Positions 11,088-24,392 of a stretch of 64,000 nucleotides of DNA are shown one piece after another. The translations under genes and the position numbers were made by a program. The stretch spans positions 32,001 to 96,000 of the forward strand of contig CBDCWP010000024.1 of assembly GCA_965223505.1 (NCBI GenBank). Reading direction: 5' to 3'. This DNA comes from Planctomycetota bacterium. Lineage in GTDB: Bacteria; Planctomycetota; PLA2; JAEUHO01. Numbering within the stretch: position 1 is the stretch's first letter; each line of letters opens with the position of its first letter. The notes below the pieces were generated by a model. That model searched no databases, had not been told where the DNA came from, and was given only the letters and a program-made list of their open reading frames with translations.

Positions 11088-13193
11088 TCAAAGATCCACG
11101 TTCAGATCGATCGAGACGTACCCCTGCCGCGGCGGCCCCGCGACGATCCCTCCGCCGAAGAATCCGCCGCGCGAATGCACGAGCCAGTCGTTGTCGAAGA
11201 GGTTCGTCACACCGACGGCGAGCTCGAGCGACGCACGGCGGCTGAACCGCCGCTGCTTGGCCAGCCGCGCGTCCCACAGCGTCACGGCTGGATTGATGCC
11301 CAGGTTGCCTTCGGCATTCTCGATTCGCGTGTTGGCGTCGTCGGAGAAGGACTCGCCGACGTACGTCCCGCCCAGCGACGCATGCCAGCCGCAGCGTTCG
11401 TAGCGCACGCGCCACGCGGCCTTCCGTTCCCAGGCATAGGGCGTCTCGTTGCCCCGGTTCGGACCGCTACGAATCTCCGAGTGCTGAAACGTCAGCGAGG
11501 CGTCACAGGACAGTCCGCGTAGCGCCGGGACGCATTCGCCGACGTCCCACGAAGCCTGGAAGTCCACGCCGCGCGCCTCGATGCGTCCCAGGTTCTCGTA
11601 GAAGCCCGTGTAGAAGACGCCGAAGTCGTCGTACTCCGTTCGCCACGCCGTCACGGAGCCGTTCAGACCGCGCCAGTCCTTCAGCCGGAGGCCGGCCTCC
11701 ATCGAGCGGCCGAGCTCGAAGTCGAGCGCGTCGCTTCCCGTCGTGAACGCGTAGCCCCAGACCTGGGGCGCCCGGAAGCCTTCGAAGTAGTTCGCGAAGA
11801 CGGCGGTGTAGGGCGACAGCTCGTAGGAGACGCCGACGCCGGGCAACACGCGGAAGAAGTCGTCGTCGAACGACCAGCCCCCGATGGGGTCCCGGCCTTC
11901 GGTGTTCGGAATCCACTCCATGCGCAGTCCGGCCTGCACCGTCAACCGCGGCAGAGGATGGAACGTGTCATCGATGTGCGCCGAGATCGTGTCGGTCTCG
12001 TAGCGCGCATCTTGGGTGAGCGTTCCGGCGCCGCCGGGGAAGGGCTCGCTACGCAGCTTCCAGCTCGGAATCCACTCCCGCTGGTAGCGCAGCCCGCCGT
12101 ACAGCTCGTGGCGGCATCCCGCGATTCGCAACGTCTTCTGGAAGCGCGCGCCAAGACCGACGAACCAGCTCGCATCCGTCCAGTCCGTGATCGTCGTGGC
12201 CATACCGAAGTGGGGCCGCTGCGCGCGCAAGTTGCGCCACGTTCGCGACGCGTATCCGAACGCCTCGAAAAAGTCGCCGCAGCCCTGATCCAGGTGCACG
12301 ACGACGTCGGCGACCTGGCGGTCCCCGTCGAATCGGTTGAACGGCCGCGCGTTGCCGAACCGGTCGGCGGCGAACTGGGCCTGCGTGAGTCCACCAGGCG
12401 CCTTGTGATCGCTGTCCATCGCGGACAGCGACGCCGCGATCCAGCTCTTCCGGCTCAGGGCGTAGCGCAACTTGAGGTTCACGTCCTGCTGGTCGAAAGC
12501 GCCGTCGTCGCGATAGCCGTCTCCGCGACGATCGACGAACGTCGCCAGGTACCCCCAGCGACCGTGGGTACCGCCGACGCTGCCCAGGAGACTGCGGTAG
12601 CCGAACGTGCCGGCGGTTGCGCGCGCATGGAACGTCGGGCACGCCGGAATCGGCTCGGTGATGAAGTTCAGGATGCCGCCGACGGTGTTCGGCGAATAGC
12701 GCACGCTGTGCGCGCCGCGCACGTAGTCGAGCGCGTACACGCGATCGGTCGTGATCGGCAGAAACGAGAACGCGGTCCAGCCGTAGGGCAAGGGACTGGC
12801 CGGCACACCGTCGATGAGCACGTGGACGTACTCGGTCAAGCCGTCGTCCGGCAGACCGCGCATCGAGAAGCTGGGCGCCGCGGCCTCGCCGCCGTTGTAG
12901 GGACGCGACGACAACGCGGGCAGATGGTGAACGAGATCGTTGAGGTCGCGGGCGCCGGTCTCGCGCACTCGCTTCGGGCCGAACACGTCGCGCGATCCGA
13001 TTGCATCGAGCGGCACCTCTGGCACTGCGCGCTCGCTGTCGGCCGGACGCGCACGCGACATGGAGAGCCTCGAGCCCGTGACGACGACGCCGGGCAGATC
13101 CGGCATGTCGACGGCGTCGGGCTCCTCCTCGTCGGCGCGCGCGGCGTCGCAGACCAAGACCAAAAGCGCGAAGAGAACGATCCACGGCTTCAT
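11088..13193 (-). CDS. TonB-dependent outer-membrane receptor (FecA-like)
   Basis: Signal peptide, TonB box VVVTGSR, plug motifs RGL..VLIDGVP..PYG and DYVRGAHSVRYSPNTVGGILNFIT, GVTNLFD, terminal beta strand. Confidence 0.9.
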   Translation of the reverse strand: MKPWIVLFALLVLVCDAARADEEEPDAVDMPDLPGVVVTGSRLSMSRARPADSERAVPEVPLDAIGSRDVFGPKRVRETGARDLNDLVHHLPALSSRPYNGGEAAAPSFSMRGLPDDGLTEYVHVLIDGVPASPLPYGWTAFSFLPITTDRVYALDYVRGAHSVRYSPNTVGGILNFITEPIPACPTFHARATAGTFGYRSLLGSVGGTHGRWGYLATFVDRRGDGYRDDGAFDQQDVNLKLRYALSRKSWIAASLSAMDSDHKAPGGLTQAQFAADRFGNARPFNRFDGDRQVADVVVHLDQGCGDFFEAFGYASRTWRNLRAQRPHFGMATTITDWTDASWFVGLGARFQKTLRIAGCRHELYGGLRYQREWIPSWKLRSEPFPGGAGTLTQDARYETDTISAHIDDTFHPLPRLTVQAGLRMEWIPNTEGRDPIGGWSFDDDFFRVLPGVGVSYELSPYTAVFANYFEGFRAPQVWGYAFTTGSDALDFELGRSMEAGLRLKDWRGLNGSVTAWRTEYDDFGVFYTGFYENLGRIEARGVDFQASWDVGECVPALRGLSCDASLTFQHSEIRSGPNRGNETPYAWERKAAWRVRYERCGWHASLGGTYVGESFSDDANTRIENAEGNLGINPAVTLWDARLAKQRRFSRRASLELAVGVTNLFDNDWLVHSRGGFFGGGIVAGPPRQGYVSIDLNVDL

Positions 13194-13909
13194 AACGCCC
13201 TCCTGTCGAGTCGGAAATGGACCGGAAGCCGCGTGCGCCGGACGGCGCCCGCCGGTCCGAAGCGATACGCGCGCGCCAGCGCGAGCGCCGCGCGATCGAG
13301 CCGGCTGTCGCCGCTGCTTCGGTCCACCAGTGCGTGGGTGACGCGGCCCTGCTCGTCGATCGTGATGCGCACCCAGACCGATCCCGACCGTCCCTCGCGA
13401 AGCGCCGGCAGCGGGTAGTAGCGGCGAGGATCGGGCGCGAACAAGACGCGCAACGGCTGCGGCGCAGAGCGGGCGTGCGGGCGCGTCACGGGCCACGCGG
13501 GCTGCGGCTGCACCGGGGGCGGTCTCGCCGTCGCCGGAGCGGGAGGCGGCGCCGCCGAGCGCCGGCGACGAAACAGCGAAACCGGAATCTCGATGCCTTC
13601 GAGCGGCGCCGCGACGGGCTTGGCGATCGGCGCGAGCTCGATCACGGCCGCCGGCGGATCCACTTCGACGACGTCGTCGAGGAACGGCGCGGTGTCGTCG
13701 ACCGTCGGAAGCGCCTCGGGGAGCGTCTCCGCGGTCGACGGGAAGACGTCGGACGACGGCGCCACTCGAACCGCAGTGAACGCTCGACGTTCCGGTCGCG
13801 GTGACGTCGTCGTAGCCAGGATGATCGCCAGCAACGCACCGCCATGCAGCGCCACCGAGGCGATCCAGGCCCAGCGCACGCGTGTGTCACCCTGCCGATG
13901 CATCGCCAT
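13190..13909 (-). CDS. tonB: Energy transducer TonB
   Basis: SVALHG TM motif, Pro-rich linker, YP..ALREGRSGSVWVRITIDEQGRV, SSG..LDRAAL. Confidence 0.9.
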   Translation of the reverse strand: MAMHRQGDTRVRWAWIASVALHGGALLAIILATTTSPRPERRAFTAVRVAPSSDVFPSTAETLPEALPTVDDTAPFLDDVVEVDPPAAVIELAPIAKPVAAPLEGIEIPVSLFRRRRSAAPPPAPATARPPPVQPQPAWPVTRPHARSAPQPLRVLFAPDPRRYYPLPALREGRSGSVWVRITIDEQGRVTHALVDRSSGDSRLDRAALALARAYRFGPAGAVRRTRLPVHFRLDRRAL

Positions 13910-14027: not shown

Positions 14028-16073
14028 CTACCGCTGCATCATGTCTTGCAACGCTTCGATCGCCGGCATGAGATCCTGCCGGTCCTCGAGCAGCGGCGCG
14101 AACAGATCGCCGCGGGCGTCGAGCCGGGGCGGCACCGTCTGGATCGTGAACTGCGACGGATGCAGATCCTCGGCCAGCTCGTCCCATTCGAGCGGCGTCG
14201 AGACCGTCGCGCCGCGCACCGGGCGGACGACGTACGGCGGCACGATCGTCTGCCCGCGCCGGTTCTGACCGAAGTCGACGTAGACCCGTCCTTCGCGCTT
14301 CCCGATCACCCGCTCGACGGTCGCGATGTCGCTCGAGTCGCGCGCGACAACGCGCGCGACGCCCTCGCAGAACATGCGTGCCTGGTCGTACGAGTAGCCC
14401 GGCAACAAGGGTATGTGAATGTGCAAGCCGGTCGCGCCCGAGGTCTTCAGCAGCGGCCGCAGCCCGACGTCGTGCAGGATCTCCCCCACCTTGCGGGCGA
14501 TCTCGATCACGTGGTTGAAGGGCGCCTCCTTCGGATCGAGATCGATGACCGCGTAGTCGGGCGACGCGAGCGAGCCGCGCCGCGACATCCAGGGATGCAA
14601 GTCGATGCTCCCGAGATTGGCGAGCAGGCGCAGCGTGTCGCGCTCGTTGCAGAGCATGTACTGCGCGCCCTCCTCCTTGTCGTCGCCTTCGATCGGAACG
14701 GTCTCCACCCAGTCCGGTATCAGGTCGCGCACGTTCTTCTGATAGAAGCTCTTGCCCTCGATGCCGTCGGGGAACCGGTTCATGTGCAGCGGCCGGTCGC
14801 GCAGGTACGGCAGGATCACGTCGGCAACGCGCTCGTAGTACGCGATCAGATCGCCCTTCGTGAAGCCCTCCGCGGGCCAGTAGACCTTCTCGAGATTCGT
14901 GTACTTCACGCGCGAGCGTCCCTGCGAGGGTCGAATGCGCGTCAGCGCCTCGCCGACATGCAGGCCGTCGGCGGCGGCACCCGCAACGGGAATCTCGCGC
15001 CACGCGTCCGAAGGACCGGCCTCGTACACGCTGTTCGCGCGCTTTGCGACGACCGACGGCAGGCCTGCCGCCTCGACGGCGTTGGCAAGCTGCTCGCCGT
15101 TGCCCGGAACGTGATCGACGAAGAGGACGTGCGCCGACGGCGGCAGGACGGCCCGCAGCGCCGCCTTGCGGTCCACCAGCGGCAGCGAACGCAGGTCGAA
15201 CTCGTCGAAGTACAGCAGATCGAACGCGTAGAAGTGGACCGCGCGGTCGTTCTCGCCGGCCAAGCGGCTCTGCAGGAGCGTGCTCGAAGGACGGCCGGCG
15301 TCGTCGGGGACCACGAGGACGCCGTCGAGCAGCGCGCGGTCCGCTCTGAGCGTCGCGCCGTCGTTTCGGATGTCGGACAGCTCGGCGCCGACGTCCCTCA
15401 GCGACACGTCGCCGCCGCGCTTCTCCAAGAACGCGCGTCGGCCCACGAACCGCATCTCGAACAGCCACGCGGGATCCGAGAACGGCTCGCTGTTCGCGCC
15501 GACGCCCATGGGTTCGACCACGTCGGGCATCGGCGCGCGCTCGGCGCGCTCGATGTCCACGCCCAGCACGGAGCTGCGCGGCGTCCCGCTATAGCGATCC
15601 TTCGACTTGAAGAGGAGCCAGTCGCGCTCGCCCTGCTTCGTCTTGACCAGGTGCCACTCCCCGCGCAACTTCCGTCCGCGCAGGATGATCTTGAGCTCGC
15701 CGCTCTTCACCGCCTCGGGACCGCTGTCGGCCAACACGACCTCGTAGACGCCGCGATCCCAGATGGTCATCGTCCCCGCGCCGTACTGGCCCTTCGGAAT
15801 CACACCGGAGAAGTGCTCGTACTCGAGCGGATGGTCTTCGGTCCGAATCGCGAGGTGCTTGTCGGCGGGGTCGTAGGAGAAACCCTTCGGCACGGCCCAG
15901 GAGCGCAACACGCCCTCCATCTCCAGGCGCAGGTCGTAGTGGAGCCGCGTCGCGTCGTGGCGGTGCACGACGAAAACAGGCTCGTCGCCGCGGACGCCGG
16001 CGTCACCGGGAGCGGGCTCCGGCGTACGCTCGAAGTCGCGCTTCTTCCGATAGTCGTCGATCGAGTCGCCCAC
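14028..16073 (-). CDS. ligD: LigD-like protein: phosphoesterase + degenerate ligase + primase-polymerase
   Basis: PE domain (YRKKRDFERTPEP, HDATRLHYDLRLE, SWAVPKG, TEDHPLEY); POL domain (RFPDGI, DLDP, KTSG.TGLH, VDFGQN, VSTPLEWDE); ligase motif I reads FEMRFVGRR. Confidence 0.9.
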   Translation of the reverse strand: MGDSIDDYRKKRDFERTPEPAPGDAGVRGDEPVFVVHRHDATRLHYDLRLEMEGVLRSWAVPKGFSYDPADKHLAIRTEDHPLEYEHFSGVIPKGQYGAGTMTIWDRGVYEVVLADSGPEAVKSGELKIILRGRKLRGEWHLVKTKQGERDWLLFKSKDRYSGTPRSSVLGVDIERAERAPMPDVVEPMGVGANSEPFSDPAWLFEMRFVGRRAFLEKRGGDVSLRDVGAELSDIRNDGATLRADRALLDGVLVVPDDAGRPSSTLLQSRLAGENDRAVHFYAFDLLYFDEFDLRSLPLVDRKAALRAVLPPSAHVLFVDHVPGNGEQLANAVEAAGLPSVVAKRANSVYEAGPSDAWREIPVAGAAADGLHVGEALTRIRPSQGRSRVKYTNLEKVYWPAEGFTKGDLIAYYERVADVILPYLRDRPLHMNRFPDGIEGKSFYQKNVRDLIPDWVETVPIEGDDKEEGAQYMLCNERDTLRLLANLGSIDLHPWMSRRGSLASPDYAVIDLDPKEAPFNHVIEIARKVGEILHDVGLRPLLKTSGATGLHIHIPLLPGYSYDQARMFCEGVARVVARDSSDIATVERVIGKREGRVYVDFGQNRRGQTIVPPYVVRPVRGATVSTPLEWDELAEDLHPSQFTIQTVPPRLDARGDLFAPLLEDRQDLMPAIEALQDMMQR

Positions 16074-16768
16074 TAGGTGAACCGCTTCGCGAACGCCTCG
16101 GCGACGAGAGGTCCGGTGGCCTCGTCCTCGTGCTTGAAGAACACGTGTACCGCCTCCCAAGGCAGGTCGGAGATGGCGGCCTCCCAGGCATCGAGCTCCT
16201 TCTTCGCATACTTTTCTTTGCGAAGCCGCAAGTAGCCGTACGACGCCGTCGCGACGACGGGCGGCGTCAGCTCATCCGTCTCCGAGATCACGAGCGCGAC
16301 GTCGTGAGCCTTGAGCACGTCGTACGTCTCTTCGTCGAACCAGCTCTCGTGCCGAAACTCGAACGCCGACCTCCACCCCGCGGGTAGAATCCTCAGGAAG
16401 GCCTTCAGACGATCGATGTCCTTGCGCAGGTACGGCGGCAGCTGGAACAGCATGGGCCCCTGCTTGTCGCCGAGCTCCTTGGCGCTACGCACCACCCAGC
16501 CGAGCGGCTCTTCGGCGTCCTTGAGGCGCTTCTTGTGGGTAATCCGCATCGAGGCCTTGAGCACGAACGAGAAGCCGTCCGGCACGGCGTCGGCCCAGTT
16601 CCGGACGACCTCCCGCTTCGGAACGCGGTAGAAGGTGTTGTTGATCTCGACCGTGCGAAGCCGGCTCGCGTAGTACGCGAGGAACTTCTTCTGCACCAGA
16701 TCGTCCGGATAGAACTTCCCCTTCCACTCCTTGTAGGCGTAGCCGCTCGTGCCGACCCGGACGTCCAT
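16073..16768 (-). CDS. DUF72 (YecE-like) protein
   Basis: VGTSGYAYKEWKG.FYP, VEINNTFY, LFQLPP, FEFRHESW, YLRLR. Confidence 0.92.
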   Translation of the reverse strand: MDVRVGTSGYAYKEWKGKFYPDDLVQKKFLAYYASRLRTVEINNTFYRVPKREVVRNWADAVPDGFSFVLKASMRITHKKRLKDAEEPLGWVVRSAKELGDKQGPMLFQLPPYLRKDIDRLKAFLRILPAGWRSAFEFRHESWFDEETYDVLKAHDVALVISETDELTPPVVATASYGYLRLRKEKYAKKELDAWEAAISDLPWEAVHVFFKHEDEATGPLVAEAFAKRFT

Positions 16769-16814
16769 CCCGAGAGGATACCGGTACGGCCAAGCGGGCG
16801 TGTAGGGTCACGGC

Positions 16815-17846
16815 GTGCACATCGACGACCTGGACTACGAGCTACCTGACGAGCTGATCGCGCAGGAGCCGGCGGCGCGCCGCGACGACGCGCGCATGCT
16901 CGTGTTGGACCGCGCGAAGGACGCGGTCTCCCACGCGGGCGTCCGCGATCTACCGGCGCATCTGCGCGCGGGGGACCTCTTGGTGCTGAACGACACACGC
17001 GTCCTACCCGCTCGTGTCTACACGATGCGTTCGACCGGCGGCCGCGTGGAGCTGCTCTTCCTCGAGCCGCAGGGCGAAGGATGGCTCGCCCTGGCCCGCT
17101 CGGGCGGCCGGTTGCAAGCGGGCGAGCCGCTCACGGTCGACAACGCGACGCTTCGACTCTCGGCCCGGCACGCGGGCGGCCGGTGGCTCGTGACGTGCGA
17201 CGGGGACGTCGAACGGGTCATGGCCGAGCACGGTCGCATGCCGCTGCCGCCGTACATCCGGCGCGACGTCGACGACGGTCGCGCGGCCATGGATGCCGAG
17301 CGCTACCAGACGCTGTACGCCGCGCACGAGGGCGCCGTAGCCGCGCCGACCGCCGGACTGCATCTGACCCCCGCCGTCTTCGACGCACTCTCCGCCGAAG
17401 GCGTCGAGAGGGCGTTCGTCACGCTACACGTGGGACTGGGCACGTTCGAACCGGTTCGGTCCGAACGGCTCGAAGATCACGACATGCACATGGAGCGATA
17501 TGCCGTTGCCCCGGAGACGGCGGACGCCGTCCGCCGCACGAAAGCGCGGGGCGGCCGTGTCGTCGCCGTGGGCACGACGTCGGTTCGCGCGCTGGAAGCG
17601 GCCGCGTTGGCCGCGCCGGACGGACTGCCGCTTCCGGGCTGGGGCCACACGGACCTCTTGATCGCCCCGGGCTTCACGTTCCAGGTCGTGGACGCGCTGC
17701 TGACGAACTTCCATCTGCCCAAGTCGACGTTGATGGCGCTCGTGTCGGCCTTCGCCGGACGGGAGCGCATCCTGGACGCGTACCGCGCAGCCGTCGCGGA
17801 ACGCTATCGCTTCTACTCGTACGGCGATGCGATGCTGTTGCTGTGA
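16815..17846 (+). CDS. queA: S-adenosylmethionine:tRNA ribosyltransferase-isomerase
   Basis: DYELPDELIAQEP, NDTRVLPAR, PLPPYI, AAPTAGLH, TLHVGLGTF, VGTTSVRALE, TNFHLPKSTL, YRFYSYGDAM. Confidence 0.97.
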   Translation: MHIDDLDYELPDELIAQEPAARRDDARMLVLDRAKDAVSHAGVRDLPAHLRAGDLLVLNDTRVLPARVYTMRSTGGRVELLFLEPQGEGWLALARSGGRLQAGEPLTVDNATLRLSARHAGGRWLVTCDGDVERVMAEHGRMPLPPYIRRDVDDGRAAMDAERYQTLYAAHEGAVAAPTAGLHLTPAVFDALSAEGVERAFVTLHVGLGTFEPVRSERLEDHDMHMERYAVAPETADAVRRTKARGGRVVAVGTTSVRALEAAALAAPDGLPLPGWGHTDLLIAPGFTFQVVDALLTNFHLPKSTLMALVSAFAGRERILDAYRAAVAERYRFYSYGDAMLLL

Positions 17847-18955
17847 CGGATCCGTTGACCACCGTTTTCGAGACCGCCGCGTCGTTCGGCTTCGACGTGG
17901 TCGGCGTCACGTCGGCGGCGCCGTTGGACGAAGCGCTGGTGAAGCTCGAGTCCTGGACGTCGGCGGGACACGGCGCGGACCTCCACTACATGACGCGCGA
18001 CCCGCCGCAGCGCGCCGACGCGCGCACGTTGTTGAAGTGCGTTCGCTCGGTGGTCACCGTGGCGGTCAACCACTGGGTCGACGCGCCGGCGTTCGAGGCC
18101 GAGGGCCGCTATGGCCGTATCGCCCGCTACGCCTGGGGACGCGACTATCACGACGTCGTGATCCCGCGGCTGCGTGAGCTCGGTGAGGCACTGACCTCGA
18201 CGTTCGGCGGCGCCGAGGCCAAGGTGGCGTGCGATCACTCGCCGTTCCTCGAGCGCGCGGCAGCCGTGCGGGCGGGGTTGGGGTTCTTCGGCAAGAACAC
18301 CTGCCTGCTGCTGCCGCGCAAGGGATCGTGGTACTTCCTCGGCGAGGTGCTGCTGGACGTCGAGCTGCCGAACACCGAGACCGACAACACCGATCACTGC
18401 GGAACGTGCACGGACTGCCTCGTCGCTTGTCCGACGGACGCGTTTCCGGAGCCGTACGTACTCGACGCACGGCGTTGCATCTCGTACTTGACGATCGAGC
18501 ACGATGGACCGATCCCGCGCGAGCTGCGCGAGCGCATGGGCGCGTGGATCTTCGGATGCGACGTCTGCCAGGACGTGTGCCCGTTCAACCGTTTCGCGAC
18601 GCCCGCGCCGTGGCCGGAGCTTCGACCCGAAGCCGGGGCCGGCACGCGTCTCGATCTCGAAGCGCTTCTCTCCATCCCCGACGACGCGTCGTTCGACGCC
18701 CGCTTCGAGGGCACGCCGCTGCTTCGGCCGGGTCGCAGCGGCATGCTGCGCAACGCCGCGATCGCGGCACGCAACGTCGGAGCGACGAGCGCCGTACCCG
18801 TGCTCGCACGACTCGTGCGCGAGGACGCGGACGCGACGGTCCGCAGCCACGCGCTCTGGGCGTTGCGCGGCCTCGACGAGGGCCGGGCGCGCGCGGCGGC
18901 CGACATCGCGTTACGCGACCCCGATCCGCTCGTTCGCGCCGAGGCCGCGGTGTGA
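17843..18955 (+). CDS. queG: Epoxyqueuosine reductase with C-terminal HEAT repeats
   Basis: IARYAWGRDYH, ERAAAVRAGLGFFGKN, CGTCTDCLVACPT, CISYLTIE, FGCDVCQDVCPFN; GTGA overlap with queA. Confidence 0.96.
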   Translation: MTDPLTTVFETAASFGFDVVGVTSAAPLDEALVKLESWTSAGHGADLHYMTRDPPQRADARTLLKCVRSVVTVAVNHWVDAPAFEAEGRYGRIARYAWGRDYHDVVIPRLRELGEALTSTFGGAEAKVACDHSPFLERAAAVRAGLGFFGKNTCLLLPRKGSWYFLGEVLLDVELPNTETDNTDHCGTCTDCLVACPTDAFPEPYVLDARRCISYLTIEHDGPIPRELRERMGAWIFGCDVCQDVCPFNRFATPAPWPELRPEAGAGTRLDLEALLSIPDDASFDARFEGTPLLRPGRSGMLRNAAIAARNVGATSAVPVLARLVREDADATVRSHALWALRGLDEGRARAAADIALRDPDPLVRAEAAV

Positions 18956-19941
18956 TCTCGATCCTCCTGCCGGTTCGCAACGGCGGCGTGTACTTCCGAG
19001 AGGCGCTGGACTCCCTGGCCGCGCAGACGCACGAGGACTTCGAGGTGCTCGTTCAAGACGACGGCTCGACCGACGACTCCGCCGAGGTCGCACGCGCGTA
19101 CGGCGCGCGCTTCCGCGTCGAGACCGAGCCCCCGAGCGGCATCGTCAGTGCGCTGAATCGAGCGGCCGCCCGGGCGCAGGGCCGGCTGCTCGTGCGCATG
19201 GACGCCGACGACGTGTGCGCGCCGCGACGACTCGAAAGGCTCTGGTCGGCCGCGCAGGAGCACGCGGATGTCGGGTTCTTCGGTAGCCGGGTGCGCTACT
19301 TCCCGGACGAGCATGTGCGCGCCGGCATGCGGCACTACGAGGGCTGGGTGAACAGCCAGCTCTCCCACGCGGAGATACGCCGTGACCGATTCGTCGAGTG
19401 CCCGATCGTGCACGCGTCGTGGGCGATCCGGCGCGAGACGTTCGACGCACTCGACGGCTACCGGGACGGGCTGTTCCCGGAAGACTACGACTTCTTCCTG
19501 CGCGCGGCGGACATGGACACGCGGTTTCGCAAGCTCCCCGACGTGCTGCTCGAGGTGCGCGAGAGCGGCCAGGGGTTCTCGAAACCGCACGAGCGCTACA
19601 GCCACGACGCGTTCCGGACGCTCAAGCTGAAGCACCTGGTTCCCCACCTCGAGACGTTGGGCAGGCCACTCGCCATCGTCGGCGCGGGCCCGGACGGCAA
19701 GCGCTGGGCGAAGGACCTGATCGCCGCGGGGCGACCGGTGCGGCACTTCGTCGAGGTCCATCCGCGCCGGATCGGAAAGGTCATCCACGGCGCCGACGTC
19801 ATCGGCTACGACCAGCTGGAGCGAGCCGAGGGCTGTTTCCTGCTCGTGGCCGTCGGTCAGAAGGGCGCCCGCGACGAGGTGCGCGGCGTGTTGGCGAACG
19901 CGGGGCTGGAAGAAGAGACGGCATTCCTCTGCGTTCAGTGA
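18952..19941 (+). CDS. GT2-family glycosyltransferase with C-terminal Rossmann-like domain; QTGAL/B3GNTL1-like
   Basis: SILLPVRN, DDGSTD, MDADD, PEDYDF, IVGAGPDGK; GTGA overlap with queG. Confidence 0.9.
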   Translation: MISILLPVRNGGVYFREALDSLAAQTHEDFEVLVQDDGSTDDSAEVARAYGARFRVETEPPSGIVSALNRAAARAQGRLLVRMDADDVCAPRRLERLWSAAQEHADVGFFGSRVRYFPDEHVRAGMRHYEGWVNSQLSHAEIRRDRFVECPIVHASWAIRRETFDALDGYRDGLFPEDYDFFLRAADMDTRFRKLPDVLLEVRESGQGFSKPHERYSHDAFRTLKLKHLVPHLETLGRPLAIVGAGPDGKRWAKDLIAAGRPVRHFVEVHPRRIGKVIHGADVIGYDQLERAEGCFLLVAVGQKGARDEVRGVLANAGLEEETAFLCVQ

Positions 19942-19958
19942 GTCCGTATCCTGCGAGG

Positions 19959-21494
19959 ATGCGTTTTGTCGCACCCCTGTTGTTGGCGCTGTTCGTGTTC
20001 CGAGGAGACGTCGTGGCGGACGAGCCAAAGGTTCCCATCGAGAAGCTGACCGTCGCGGAGAAGAGCGACTACGAGGCCACGTCCACGTCGGCCGAGGTCG
20101 TCGAGCTGGTGGAACGCATCGTCGAGGTCTCGCCCATCGTCTCGCGCTTCACGTTCGGCAAGACGGTCGAGGGCCGGGACATGATCGCGGCGGTCGCCGC
20201 GCAGCCCCACGTGACGACGCCGCTGAAGCCCGACGACCACCGGCTCGTCGTGCTGCTGCTCGGCAACATCCACGCAGGCGAGTGCGCCGGAAAGGAAGCG
20301 CTGTTGCGGCTCCTACGCGAGCTCGGCCTGGCCGCCAACCACCCGTGGATGAAGCACCTGGTGATCTTGTTCGTGCCGAACTACAACGCCGACGGGAACG
20401 ACAAGACGGCCAAGGACAATCGCCCCGGCCAGGTTGGTCCCAAGAACGGCATGGGGACGCGGGCGAACGCGCAGGGTCTCGACCTCAACCGCGACTTCGT
20501 GAAGCTCGAATCGCCGGAAGCGCGGGCGTTCGTCAGGTTGATCGACGAGTGGAGTCCGCACGTCTTCATCGACTGCCACACGACGAACGGTTCGCGTCAC
20601 CGCTACGCGCTGACGTACGACGTCCCGCACAATCCCTCGGCGGCGACCGCCGCGGTCGTGTACGCGCGAAACATGATGAAGACCGTGACCGAGACGCTGA
20701 CGAAGCGCGGCCTCGACACCTTCTACTACGGCAACTTCGATCGGGACCACACCCGCTGGTCGACGTACGGGCATCAGCCGCGGTACAGCACCGAATACGT
20801 GGGGCTACGTGGACGCATCGCCATCCTGAGCGAGGCGTACTCGTACATCCCCTACCGCGAGCGCATCGAGGCGACACATGCGTTCGTCTCGGCGTGTATC
20901 GACCACGTCGCGCAGGTGAACGAGACCGTGGCACTGCGCTCGCTGCTCTCGCCGACGACGCTGCCGAGCGAGGTCGCGATCCGCGCCGAGATCGCGCCGT
21001 TCGCCGACAAGGTCGTGCTCAAGGGGTACGAGGCGACGGGCAAGCGCGCGCCCGGGCCGATCGAGAACGGCGTGCCGAAAGACCACACCGTCGAATTCTG
21101 GGGGCGCTTCGACCCCACGCTCACGGCCAAGCGCCCCGTGGCGTACGCCATCCCGCCGACGCACGAGAACATCGTCGAGCACCTGCGCCGGCACGGCATC
21201 GAGGTGACGAAGGCCGAGGCCGATCAAGAGCGAGCGGTGCGCGTCTCGAAGCCGACGGACCTGCAGAAGTCGCCGGCGACCTTTCAGGGACATCAGCTCG
21301 TCACCGTGAACACGACGACGACAGAGGGTCGCAGGACGATTCCGAAGGGCTGGTTCCTCGTGGACGCCACTCAGCGGCTCGGCAATCTCGCGGTCTACCT
21401 CCTCGACCCGCGCTCTGACGACGGGCTGGTCACCTGGAACTTCTTCGACGATGACCTGGAGGGCGAGTTCCCGGTCCTGGAGGTGCTCGACTGA
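19959..21494 (+). CDS. Secreted M14 zinc carboxypeptidase-family protein
   Basis: Signal peptide; NIHAGE, NADG, DLNRD, DCHTTNG. Confidence 0.88.
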   Translation: MRFVAPLLLALFVFRGDVVADEPKVPIEKLTVAEKSDYEATSTSAEVVELVERIVEVSPIVSRFTFGKTVEGRDMIAAVAAQPHVTTPLKPDDHRLVVLLLGNIHAGECAGKEALLRLLRELGLAANHPWMKHLVILFVPNYNADGNDKTAKDNRPGQVGPKNGMGTRANAQGLDLNRDFVKLESPEARAFVRLIDEWSPHVFIDCHTTNGSRHRYALTYDVPHNPSAATAAVVYARNMMKTVTETLTKRGLDTFYYGNFDRDHTRWSTYGHQPRYSTEYVGLRGRIAILSEAYSYIPYRERIEATHAFVSACIDHVAQVNETVALRSLLSPTTLPSEVAIRAEIAPFADKVVLKGYEATGKRAPGPIENGVPKDHTVEFWGRFDPTLTAKRPVAYAIPPTHENIVEHLRRHGIEVTKAEADQERAVRVSKPTDLQKSPATFQGHQLVTVNTTTTEGRRTIPKGWFLVDATQRLGNLAVYLLDPRSDDGLVTWNFFDDDLEGEFPVLEVLD

Positions 21495-21535: not shown

Positions 21536-22228
21536 CTACGGCTCCTTCAGCTTCTCCTTGAACACCTTCTCGAACTTCTCGAGCTTCGGGGCAATCACCG
21601 CGCGGCAATAGCCCTGGCTGGGATTGTCGTTGAAGTAGTTCTGATGGTAGTTCTCGGCAATGTAGTAGTTGCCGGCTTCGTACGGAACGATCTCCGTCAC
21701 GATCGGCGCGTCGAAGACCTTCTCGTCCGTCAGCTTCTGCCTGTAGGTCTCGGCCAGGCGCTTCTGTTCGTCGTCGTGATAGAAGACCGCGGAACGGTAC
21801 TGCGTCCCGACGTCGGCCCCCTGTCGATTGAGCGTCGTCGGGTCGTGCGTCTGCCAGAACACCTCGAGCAGCTCGTCGTACGTCACCTTGGACGGGTCGT
21901 ATGCAATCTGGGCGACTTCCGCGTGCCCGGTCGTTCCCGAACAGACTTGCTTGTACGTCGGGCTCTCGACGTGGCCGCCGGCATACCCCGACTCCACGGA
22001 GAGCACACCGTGCAGTCGTTGGAACACCGCTTCGACACACCAGAAACAACCCGCGCCGAACGTCGCGAGCCGACGCTCGCTCGGCGGAACATTAGAAACG
22101 CTCTCATCCTGCTGGCTCGGCAAGGCGGGGTTTTCCACAGCCGTCTCCCTACGGGTCTCGTCACCACAACCCGCGAGTGCCAGCGAGAAAACGGCGAGGA
22201 AAGCGGTTCTGGCGGCGTCACGGATCAT
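21536..22228 (-). CDS. msrA: Peptide methionine sulfoxide reductase A, with lipoprotein signal
   Basis: GCFWC, TTGHAEV, HDPTTLNRQGADVGTQYRS, AENYHQNY, GYC; lipobox LALAGC. Confidence 0.95.
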   Translation of the reverse strand: MIRDAARTAFLAVFSLALAGCGDETRRETAVENPALPSQQDESVSNVPPSERRLATFGAGCFWCVEAVFQRLHGVLSVESGYAGGHVESPTYKQVCSGTTGHAEVAQIAYDPSKVTYDELLEVFWQTHDPTTLNRQGADVGTQYRSAVFYHDDEQKRLAETYRQKLTDEKVFDAPIVTEIVPYEAGNYYIAENYHQNYFNDNPSQGYCRAVIAPKLEKFEKVFKEKLKEP

Positions 22229-22425
22229 CTGTACGAGTCTACGCGACGAACGGCGACACGCCGGCACGCGCACAGGTGCGAGCAAGCAGCTTCGAGTGGT
22301 ATGCCGGTATTCAGAGCGAACGTCACGAATCCGATGTCAGGAAGGTTGATGCGTCGAGCGCCGCGCGGTAGGTAGGCACGAGGACGCCCCCGACGACATC
22401 CTCGACCTCGTCAGCGAGACCCCGC

Positions 22426-22668: not shown

Positions 22669-23868
22669 CTATCGCAGGACGCGGCAGCGCGGGTGCTCGC
22701 CCGCGAACGCGTCCCTGGCTTCCGGCGTCACCTTCGAGCCGCGCAGATCCAGGAAACGAAGCTCCGGCAAGCCGCGCAGGCGCTGGAGCCCGGCGTCACC
22801 GATGCCGGTGAACTGAAGCTGCAGGAACTGGAGCGACTTCAGCGCTTCGAGATTCGCGATACCGGCGTCGCTGATGCCGGGGTTGCTGTAGAGACCCAGC
22901 CGTCGCAGCGATGTCAGGTTCTTGAGGTGCGCCATGCCGGCATCGGTCATGGAGAGGCTTGCGTTCAGCTCGCGCAGGTCCGTCAGGTCTCTCAGGTGCT
23001 CGAGCCCGGCCTCCGAGATGTTCATGCCGCGAATCATCAGGGACTGAAGCGACTTCTGGGAGGCGACGTGGCGCATGCCGTCGTCGGTGATGTTGGTGTT
23101 GCGGTACAGGCTCAAGAACTTGAGGTCGAACTTCTCGAGGTGGTTCAGACCGACGTCCGTCACCGCTGTCGCACCGATCGAAAGCCCCTCGAGAGGAAGG
23201 TCCTGGAGATACGCCATGCCTTCGTCGGTGATCTTGGTTCCGGTCAGGCGCAGGTCACGGAGCGCTTCGAGCTGCCCGAGACGCTCGAGGCCTACGTCGC
23301 CGATGCCGGTTTGCTCGAGGTTGAGCTCCTTGAGCTCGCTCATGTTCTCCAGGTGCGCGAGTCCGCCGTCCGTAACCAGCGCGCCCCGCAGGTTGAGGCT
23401 CTCGAGCTGCGTCAAGCCGGCGAGCACCGCGAGGTCGTCGTCCGTGATTCCGGTTCCGCCGAGGTCGAGCTTCTTCAGATTGGGCAACGCGGCCAAGAGC
23501 TCGAGGCCGTCGGCATCGACGATCATGCGCGAGAGATCGAGCGAACGCATGCTGCGCAGCTCCTCGAGCGTCATGCCGCCGAACTTCTCGGCGGAGAGCT
23601 CGTGTAGCCACGCCAGAGCGCTCTTCAACGGTTGCAGGCTCTCGGCCGCCTTCCGGGCTTCGAGGTGCTCGAGGGGCTCGCCTTCGTCGTCGGTCTCGGC
23701 CGAACCGCCGCCGCCATGCCCGACCAGCCCTTCGACATCCGTGTTCTCGTCGCCGGACGTTACGGGCTTCTCCGCCACGGGCGATTCATCGACGGGCTTG
23801 AGGAACCACCCCAGTACGAAGCCGACCAGGAGAACGACGACCGCGCCCAAGCCCGCCTTCAGATCCAT
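22669..23868 (-). CDS. Membrane-anchored leucine-rich repeat protein
   Basis: N-terminal TM, then many LxxLxLxxTxITDxGL repeats. Confidence 0.9.
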   Translation of the reverse strand: MDLKAGLGAVVVLLVGFVLGWFLKPVDESPVAEKPVTSGDENTDVEGLVGHGGGGSAETDDEGEPLEHLEARKAAESLQPLKSALAWLHELSAEKFGGMTLEELRSMRSLDLSRMIVDADGLELLAALPNLKKLDLGGTGITDDDLAVLAGLTQLESLNLRGALVTDGGLAHLENMSELKELNLEQTGIGDVGLERLGQLEALRDLRLTGTKITDEGMAYLQDLPLEGLSIGATAVTDVGLNHLEKFDLKFLSLYRNTNITDDGMRHVASQKSLQSLMIRGMNISEAGLEHLRDLTDLRELNASLSMTDAGMAHLKNLTSLRRLGLYSNPGISDAGIANLEALKSLQFLQLQFTGIGDAGLQRLRGLPELRFLDLRGSKVTPEARDAFAGEHPRCRVLR

Positions 23869-23882
23869 CGGCGCCACCTCCG

Positions 23883-24392
23883 TCAGTCCGGTCGAATGCG
23901 ATTGGCTCCCGTACGCAGCATCGACGGCATCTCGCCCGCGTCCGCACCGGCGCAGATGGTGAACAGCTGCGTGAGGTCGACGGCGAGGTCTACGTCGTAG
24001 ATCTTCGAGTCGCCGGCTTCCTCCTTCATCATCGCCGTGAGCTCGGGGAACCGACCTTCGATCCAGCGCAGGAACGACGTCCGGGTGTGATCGCCTCGCG
24101 CAAGATCCTCGGCGAGCCGCTCCAGCACGCCGTGCATGAATCGGCGCAGCCGCGTGTCGCACTCCGGCGGCACTTCGAGGTCGATGAGGGTGCTCGCGAT
24201 GGAGTCGAAGATGGACGCGCCGCCGGCGGACCACGCCCGCACACTGTCGTGAAACGCGTGCCCCTTGTTCTGCCAGAAGATCAGCGTGCGGTAGAAGTGA
24301 TAGAGCGCCTGGCCGGCACGCCTTCGCTGGTCATTCGTACCGACGATCAGTCTTTCGAGCTCGCGGTCGAGTTGGGTCTTGGCGGTGCTCAT
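23883..24392 (-). CDS. Hypothetical protein
   Basis: Globular-looking ORF (MSTAKTQLDRELERL...) between two co-oriented genes. Confidence 0.65.
   Translation of the reverse strand: MSTAKTQLDRELERLIVGTNDQRRRAGQALYHFYRTLIFWQNKGHAFHDSVRAWSAGGASIFDSIASTLIDLEVPPECDTRLRRFMHGVLERLAEDLARGDHTRTSFLRWIEGRFPELTAMMKEEAGDSKIYDVDLAVDLTQLFTICAGADAGEMPSMLRTGANRIRPD

Follow-up and report, generated by a model that had tools for sequence, protein, structure and literature searches.

Glycosylated queuosines were known decades before the animal enzymes that make them, which were reportedly named by Zhao et al. in Cell in 2023. To our knowledge, the only hypermodification of queuosine (Q) in bacteria is glutamyl-queuosine (glutamyl-Q), the product of the glutamyl-queuosine synthetase GluQRS (YadB). 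Here we describe an operon within a 64-kb stretch of planctomycete DNA (the whole of this stretch is hereafter the window) in which the queuosine biosynthesis genes queA and queG are followed by a gene encoding a glycosyltransferase (GT) of the GT2 family. We tentatively propose that this GT is a hexosyl-queuosine transferase that would act on Q at tRNA position 34 (Q34) after QueG, and thus a bacterial counterpart of the animal enzyme QTGAL (B3GNTL1). This reading is prompted by the tightly coupled and conserved operon, by the soluble two-domain architecture of the protein, and by a pointer to B3GNTL1 that is specific although unaligned; taken together, these features make the GT a plausible candidate, reasonable but unproven.

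The animal queuosine-tRNA mannosyltransferase QTMAN (GTDC1) has a GT-B/GT4-like fold and is thus different from the window GT, which, in Pfam and NCBIfam scans, showed no similarity to group-1 glycosyltransferase families. GluQRS also modifies the cyclopentenediol of Q, yielding glutamyl-Q, but it resembles aminoacyl-tRNA synthetases, uses glutamate as the transferred group, and is unrelated to the window GT in both sequence and chemistry. QTGAL, for which we know of no function other than that on Q, belongs to CAZy family GT2 and, like the window GT, has a GT2 catalytic domain; the two differ in that animal hosts salvage queuine, whereas the bacterial host of the window makes Q de novo. In the passages of PMC11755703 and PMC11705514 on which we draw, B3GNTL1 is equated with QTGAL, the galactosyl-queuosine enzyme, and the queuosine-gene neighbors of the window GT fit this known substrate; the former source, to the same extent, gives the synthesis of galactosyl-queuosine, on tRNA, as the function of B3GNTL1. 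QTMAN is described, in excerpts of 10.64898/2026.06.28.735034 and PMC11755703, as placing its sugar on the same Q34 cyclopentenediol, and an excerpt of PMC10690763 sets the sugar-modified queuosines found in vertebrates against glutamyl-Q.

The operon and the architecture of its glycosyltransferase

The operon consists of the following features:

16815-17846, + strand: queA, tRNA preQ1(34) S-adenosylmethionine ribosyltransferase-isomerase, 343 aa, GTG start (PF02547, 5.5e-127)
17843-17846, + strand: GTGA overlap of the queA stop codon (TGA) and the queG start codon (GTG), read directly from the sequence
17843-18955, + strand: queG, epoxyqueuosine reductase, 370 aa, GTG start (TIGR00276, 8e-98, 327.5 bits, cut-off 200)
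18952-18955, + strand: GTGA overlap of the queG stop codon and the GT start codon, read directly from the sequence
18952-19941, + strand: GT2 glycosyltransferase gene, 329 aa (PF00535, 4.4e-31, 108.5 bits, gathering score 23.3, residues 3-165)

An earlier note on this DNA, made from the letters alone, had identified queA and queG and described them and the GT2 gene as joined by GTGA overlaps at 17843-17846 and 18952-18955. Both overlaps were found at exactly these coordinates, and both gene identities are borne out by curated protein families: over residues 2-343, QueA exceeds the cut-offs of NF001140 (425.2 bits, cut-off 324) and TIGR00113 (375.8 bits, cut-off 267.45), and QueG, which passes that of TIGR00276, contains a DUF1730 domain (PF08331, 3.3e-17), a 4Fe-4S double-cluster domain (PF13484, 1.5e-23), and C-terminal HEAT repeats (PF13646). 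The start residue of the GT is the same in its closest homolog, P0005 (79% identity). Thus, queA, queG and the GT gene form an operon with translational coupling by GTGA overlaps, and the gene order is that of the pathway, with synthesis of epoxyqueuosine (oQ) followed by oQ reduction and then by the GT.

Tightly packed queA-queG-GT arrays are present in seven further distinct loci (L001, L002, L004, L007, L038, L098, and L114). Five of these (L001, L002, L004, L007, and L038), all from Planctomycetota, are among the best 80 loci of a scan of the genome collection and carry queA and queG directly upstream of the GT gene. Among 39 planctomycete regions holding the GT, the operon was found in three (L084, which is the same contig as L001; L098; and L114), each of them from f1, the family to which the window belongs; in another f1 genome (G430), queA and a partial GT are about 1.5 kb apart. 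The linkage and its tight spacing are preserved across genera of f1 even though the identity of the GTs in the seven loci to the window protein falls to 41-51%, and the GT is the last gene of the operon in at least five of the seven.

An AlphaFold2 model of the GT, built from an alignment of 36 homologs (mean pLDDT 95.3, pTM 0.92), consists of two domains:

18952-19660, + strand: GT-A (GT2) catalytic domain and basic linker helix, residues 1 to about 236 (structure superposition, invariant residues)
19669-19938, + strand: C-terminal Rossmann-like domain with a GxGxxGK loop, residues about 234/240-329 (structure and profile matches)

The PF00535 score, the DxD motif and the GT-A fold all assign the protein to the GT2 family. 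Residues D36-D37, D84/D86/D87 (DxD), E177-D178, and G246 are invariant in all 36 aligned sequences, and G244, G249 and K250 of the GxGxxGK loop are nearly so; given the invariance of the DxD and E177-D178 residues, the GT looks catalytically competent. In VIA-align comparisons (Foldseek was also run), residues 1-236 matched K4CP (Z 24.4), WrtF (24.0), SpsA (24.0), and TarS (23.3). The GT-A domains of bacterial GT2s of this type superpose on that of the window GT with Z scores of 22-24 and root mean square deviation (rmsd) of 2.8-3.9, and share its DxD and acceptor-base motifs, but these enzymes act on glycan or teichoic-acid substrates, lack the C-terminal Rossmann-like domain, and are about 20% identical to the window GT.

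For the C-terminal domain (residues 234-329), the best structural match is 3nkl_B, a fragment of UDP-D-quinovosamine 4-dehydrogenase (Z 13.0, rmsd 2.0, 90 residues aligned). Weak sequence matches of this domain were obtained with the N-terminal part of TIGR03570 (NeuD/PglB/VioB; 1e-4), VioB (7txp; 2.3e-6), and Rex (5zz5; 1.8e-5), and homologs of the GT match PglD_N (8e-4 in P0051) and CoA_binding. The domain thus resembles the N-terminal domain of the PglD/NeuD/VioB acetyltransferases, with the difference that, in the latter, the Rossmann-like domain precedes a left-handed beta-helix, whereas in the window GT, it follows the GT2 domain. No solved structure recovered in the fold searches covers both domains in one chain. 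The GT has no membrane segment (maximum Kyte-Doolittle 19-mer value of 0.9) and, as a soluble, cytoplasmic two-domain enzyme, looks unlike the usual envelope GT2. Moreover, it falls far short of the curated NCBIfam cut-offs of all 19 glycosyltransferase families listed, including those of envelope and exopolysaccharide synthesis (EpsE, WcaA, PgaC, and others), the best match being EpsE with 75.2 bits (4e-21) against a cut-off of 450.

A resemblance to B3GNTL1 was first proposed in the earlier note; the eight stretches of the GT that it cited all occur in the translated sequence. In a search of a protein atlas by language-model features, all clusters listed without filtering are bacterial look-alikes (score 0.99). 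When clusters with PF13641, PF10111, PF13632 or PF13506 were left out, the best named cluster among the three shown was the automatically named 'putative UDP-GlcNAc:betaGal beta-1,3-N-acetylglucosaminyltransferase-l…' (score 0.98, 206 of 256 features shared), followed by a bacterial 'C2185-like_N/GT2/PglD_N' cluster (0.95) and a phage cluster (0.94). The B3GNTL1-like cluster is 100% eukaryotic, with a median length of 511 aa, and its members come most often from Bacillariophyta, so that the match is mostly to diatom rather than to animal proteins. Searches of the PDB with the GT, by sequence and by profile, returned no B3GNTL1/QTGAL entry.

Distribution of the family and its gene neighborhoods

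A search with the single protein produced 1831 matches at E ≤ 1e-5 among 8000 candidates scored, and the top 120 of these are almost all near-full-length (about 310-354 aa), all bacterial, and labelled 'glycosyltransferase' at most. A profile of the family-specific half of the protein (alignment A2, residues 130-329), run against a library clustered at 50% identity, matched 788 representatives at E ≤ 1e-30, a number that rises to 2116 at E ≤ 1e-10, and full-length members of the family measure about 335 aa; the best 150 of the 788 clusters included no recognizable eukaryote, in a library that is nameless and whose sequence origins were not inspected. Searches for longer proteins with A2 (371 aa and up) and with a low-GC profile, A3 (355 aa and up), returned only bacterial-looking proteins, and none of the 79 matching phage records covers 80% or more of the GT.

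The scan of the genome collection found at least 492 relatives. The best 80 come mostly from Gemmatimonadota, and the rest of these from Planctomycetota, Hydrogenedentota, Xanthomonadales, Burkholderiales, Acidobacteriota, Armatimonadota, 'Deferribacteres'/KSB1, FCPU426, and three Actinomycetota. The family was detected in 51 of the 301 sampled Planctomycetota, and a full-length GT in only one of the 401 sampled Actinomycetota, a tally in which the unpublished genomes G273, G087 and G348 figure only as generic GT2-domain matches. By and large, the GT gene tree mirrors taxonomy, as would that of a housekeeping gene. The GTs of three Actinomycetota metagenome-assembled genomes (L027, L062, and L067) form a clade nested inside the Gemmatimonadota sequences, which suggests that they were acquired by horizontal transfer; all three genomes encode queA and have tgt matches (in G002, split pieces below the cut-off).

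Several family members are natural fusions, with an N-terminal class-I S-adenosylmethionine (SAM) methyltransferase domain (P0152 and P0155), an N-terminal CYTH domain (P0375 and P0379; 'Ca. Bruticola'), or a C-terminal YkuD transpeptidase domain (P0164). Two apparent fusions with HEAT repeats (P0395 and P0398) were rejected as QueG fusions because they look like mis-called high-GC frames.

All carriers of the GT that were examined encode queuosine genes. All five carriers examined from other phyla have queA and tgt, and queA was detected in 48 of 50 further carriers (drawn from the 70 first listed, with 20 left out; the unpublished G710 is counted among the 48), for a total of 53 of 55. The two carriers without queA, G724 and G746, have tgt matches, those of G746 being fragments at contig ends, and three planctomycete carriers without a queA match contain tgt and queG in genomes that are 84-85% complete. 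The earlier note had considered that its proposal would fall if the GT were common, with no que linkage, in genomes lacking Q; among the carrier genomes examined, there was none without queuosine genes. The control genome of Corynebacterium glutamicum lacks queA. In the genome of the window itself, tgt is located on a different contig.

Outside the que operons, the neighborhoods of the GT gene are highly heterogeneous, with 590 neighbor proteins falling into 383 clusters. In Gemmatimonadota, the upstream neighbor is uvrA in 35 loci and the downstream one is gyrA in 25; in this set (L010-L080, for example, L013:3083-9850), uvrA, the GT gene and gyrA lie on one strand, often followed by genes for a PLP-dependent enzyme and a HAD hydrolase. 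In three Xanthomonadales loci (L051, L053, and L064), lysS (720 bits) lies upstream and a C-N hydrolase gene (NF007757) downstream on the same strand, with gaps of about 25 bp. In one planctomycete (L101:4092-5111, + strand), dusB, encoding a tRNA dihydrouridine synthase, ends 14 bp before the GT gene and is a second, independent tRNA-modification neighbor, at a single locus. The remaining neighbors are assorted metabolic genes, so that, elsewhere, the GT is accompanied mostly by housekeeping rather than envelope-sugar genes. One metagenomic lineage of seven loci (L140, L170, L171, L177, L181, L194, and L195) stands apart: it has a divergently oriented MscS channel gene and a gene for an FlK-type thioesterase beside the GT gene, a group-1 glycosyltransferase gene in four of the seven, and an NAD-dependent sugar epimerase/dehydratase gene likewise in four. 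Outside this lineage, no glycan-assembly genes were found among the annotated neighbors, many neighbors being without a family match or unscanned.

Possible acceptors of the glycosyltransferase

QueA and QueG act on tRNA-bound substrates. Under the proposed mechanism, QueA and then QueG would complete Q at tRNA position 34, after which the GT, as a soluble, inverting-type GT2, would use a nucleotide sugar as the donor and attach its hexose to one of the hydroxyls of the Q34 cyclopentenediol. The acceptor would thus be Q-tRNA, which may be held by the Rossmann-like C-terminal domain together with the basic linker helix; family members outside the que operons would do the same job, an extension that, like the identity of the sugar, we infer. 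A broader and more doubtful version of this proposal is that the two-domain family makes hexosyl-queuosine on bacterial tRNA across phyla (Planctomycetota, Gemmatimonadota, Hydrogenedentota, Xanthomonadales, Acidobacteriota, Armatimonadota, some Actinomycetota, and others) and, in addition, is the stock from which eukaryotic QTGAL/B3GNTL1 was drawn. Should the proposal be correct, sugar-decorated Q would be no animal speciality but also a new tRNA modification for bacteria, there would be a tractable system for the role of the sugar in decoding, and a pointer would be gained to where the animal enzyme came from; should it fail, what would be left is a very large family of soluble two-domain GTs still without a known substrate.

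Several observations weigh against the hexosyl-queuosine assignment. The note had called for an analysis of the gene neighborhood; the linkage to que genes is conserved in one planctomycete clade but absent in 191 other loci. Neither queA nor queG was found within the flanks in any of the other 75 of the best 80 genome loci or in any of the remaining 36 Planctomycetota loci, and none of 80 metagenome loci, picked with the low-GC profile, contained queA, queG or tgt, although only 33 of these are 5 kb or longer. In a quick IQ-TREE analysis of 118 GT sequences, all linked rows belong to one clade (SH-aLRT 100) of 10 rows, of which nine, including the window, are linked; the tenth, L085 (G638, also f1), is the closest relative in the tree and yet lacks the que linkage. 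Because the linked rows form a single clade, the linkage counts as one event, gained once and lost once, in one planctomycete family, whereas the GT family spans hundreds of lineages. The co-occurrence with queuosine genes says little, given that queA is nearly universal in Planctomycetota (289 of 301 sampled genomes, compared to 51 of 301 for the GT). The only computed link to B3GNTL1 is the atlas feature look-up, which carries no alignment, E-value or tree. The net charges of the catalytic core (-8), linker (+2) and C-terminal domain (0) are not strikingly basic, and the group-1 glycosyltransferase and epimerase of the seven-locus lineage also fit a glycan pathway, although the epimerase could equally supply the donor sugar. 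Full-text literature searches, supplements aside, turned up no report of bacterial glycosyl-queuosine or of a bacterial QTGAL homolog.

Much of this evidence is shared by the main rival explanation, namely, that the GT glycosylates another cytoplasmic acceptor, be it a metabolite, a cofactor or a protein, and that its place behind queG is a historical accident kept by descent. The single origin of the linkage, its absence from all those other loci, the heterogeneity of the neighbors, and the presence of the GT in only a fraction of the queA-bearing Planctomycetota are all as would be the case under this explanation, and the GxGxxGK-containing domain resembles domains that bind small nucleotides (VioB, Rex, and 3nkl). 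We nevertheless consider it less likely than the queuosine reading: a tight operon with 4-nt overlaps has persisted in different genera although GT identity falls as low as 41%, and the best named non-bacterial look-alike of the protein is the B3GNTL1-like cluster, the function given for B3GNTL1 in the cited part of PMC11755703 being galactosyl-queuosine synthesis. The target could, alternatively, be a related one other than Q34 of tRNA, such as free queuosine or queuine (for storage or salvage), epoxyqueuosine, or a nucleoside elsewhere in tRNA or other RNA. The queA-queG operon suggests queuosine chemistry but does not specify which molecule is the acceptor, and both the loci next to dusB and lysS and the fusions to CYTH and SAM-methyltransferase domains are compatible with such targets. 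With the substrates of QueA and QueG established as tRNA-bound, however, this seems improbable. The animal homolog, too, is reported to act on tRNA, according to the same excerpt of PMC11755703.

Equally slim are the chances that the GT is an ordinary GT2 that builds the cell envelope or exopolysaccharides, the role implied by its source annotations ('glycosyltransferase involved in cell wall biosynthesis'). It does have generic GT2 matches, EpsE included, its structural neighbors are polysaccharide and teichoic-acid enzymes, and one lineage has the adjoining group-1 glycosyltransferase and sugar epimerase genes; but the matches are all far below the curated cut-offs, the protein has no membrane segment, and its conserved extra C-terminal domain is present in none of the structural neighbors. 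The largely taxonomic gene tree and the annotated neighbors outside that lineage, which include no glycan-assembly gene (many others having no family match or being unscanned), likewise make an envelope role unlikely. The assignment of the GT as a hexosyl-queuosine transferase, tentative as it is, is the one that we put forward.

Genes flanking the operon

Directly downstream of the operon, the following element was identified:

19945-19963, + strand: terminator-like hairpin followed by a T-run, directly after the GT stop codon and overlapping the ATG of the next gene (19959)

Such hairpins are no commoner than expected by chance (2 found compared to 1.9 expected in shuffled sequences). The earlier note had set the three genes apart as one unit on the grounds that the next gene has its own promoter, with TATCCT as the -10 box. 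This promoter did not hold up: a scan of 16400-20400 detected no sigma-70-like sites, and TATCCT (19947-19952) lies inside the stem of the hairpin. The unit itself is better supported by the relatives, given that the strand changes right after the GT gene in L001, L002, L007, L098 and L114. In the window, the next gene (19959-21494, + strand) encodes an M14 zinc carboxypeptidase with a signal peptide. Because its ATG is only 17 nt past the GT stop codon, it may be a fourth co-transcribed gene in this genome, though not in the relatives.

Next to the carboxypeptidase gene and convergent with it lies an msrA whose product is extended at the N-terminus by a long stretch (21536-22285, - strand); beyond it, by eye from the list of open reading frames (ORFs), comes a gene for a leucine-rich-repeat protein with a membrane anchor (22669-24234, - strand). 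No tRNA genes were found in the window. On the other side of the operon, a DUF72 gene (16073-16768, - strand) lies 46 bp from queA in divergent orientation, and its end is overlapped by a gene for a three-domain LigD (3'-phosphoesterase, ATP-dependent ligase, and primase-polymerase; 14028-16160, - strand) of non-homologous end joining. Further upstream, a TonB-dependent-receptor-like ORF and a TonB-like gene (11088-13909, - strand) were recognized, also by eye from the ORF list.

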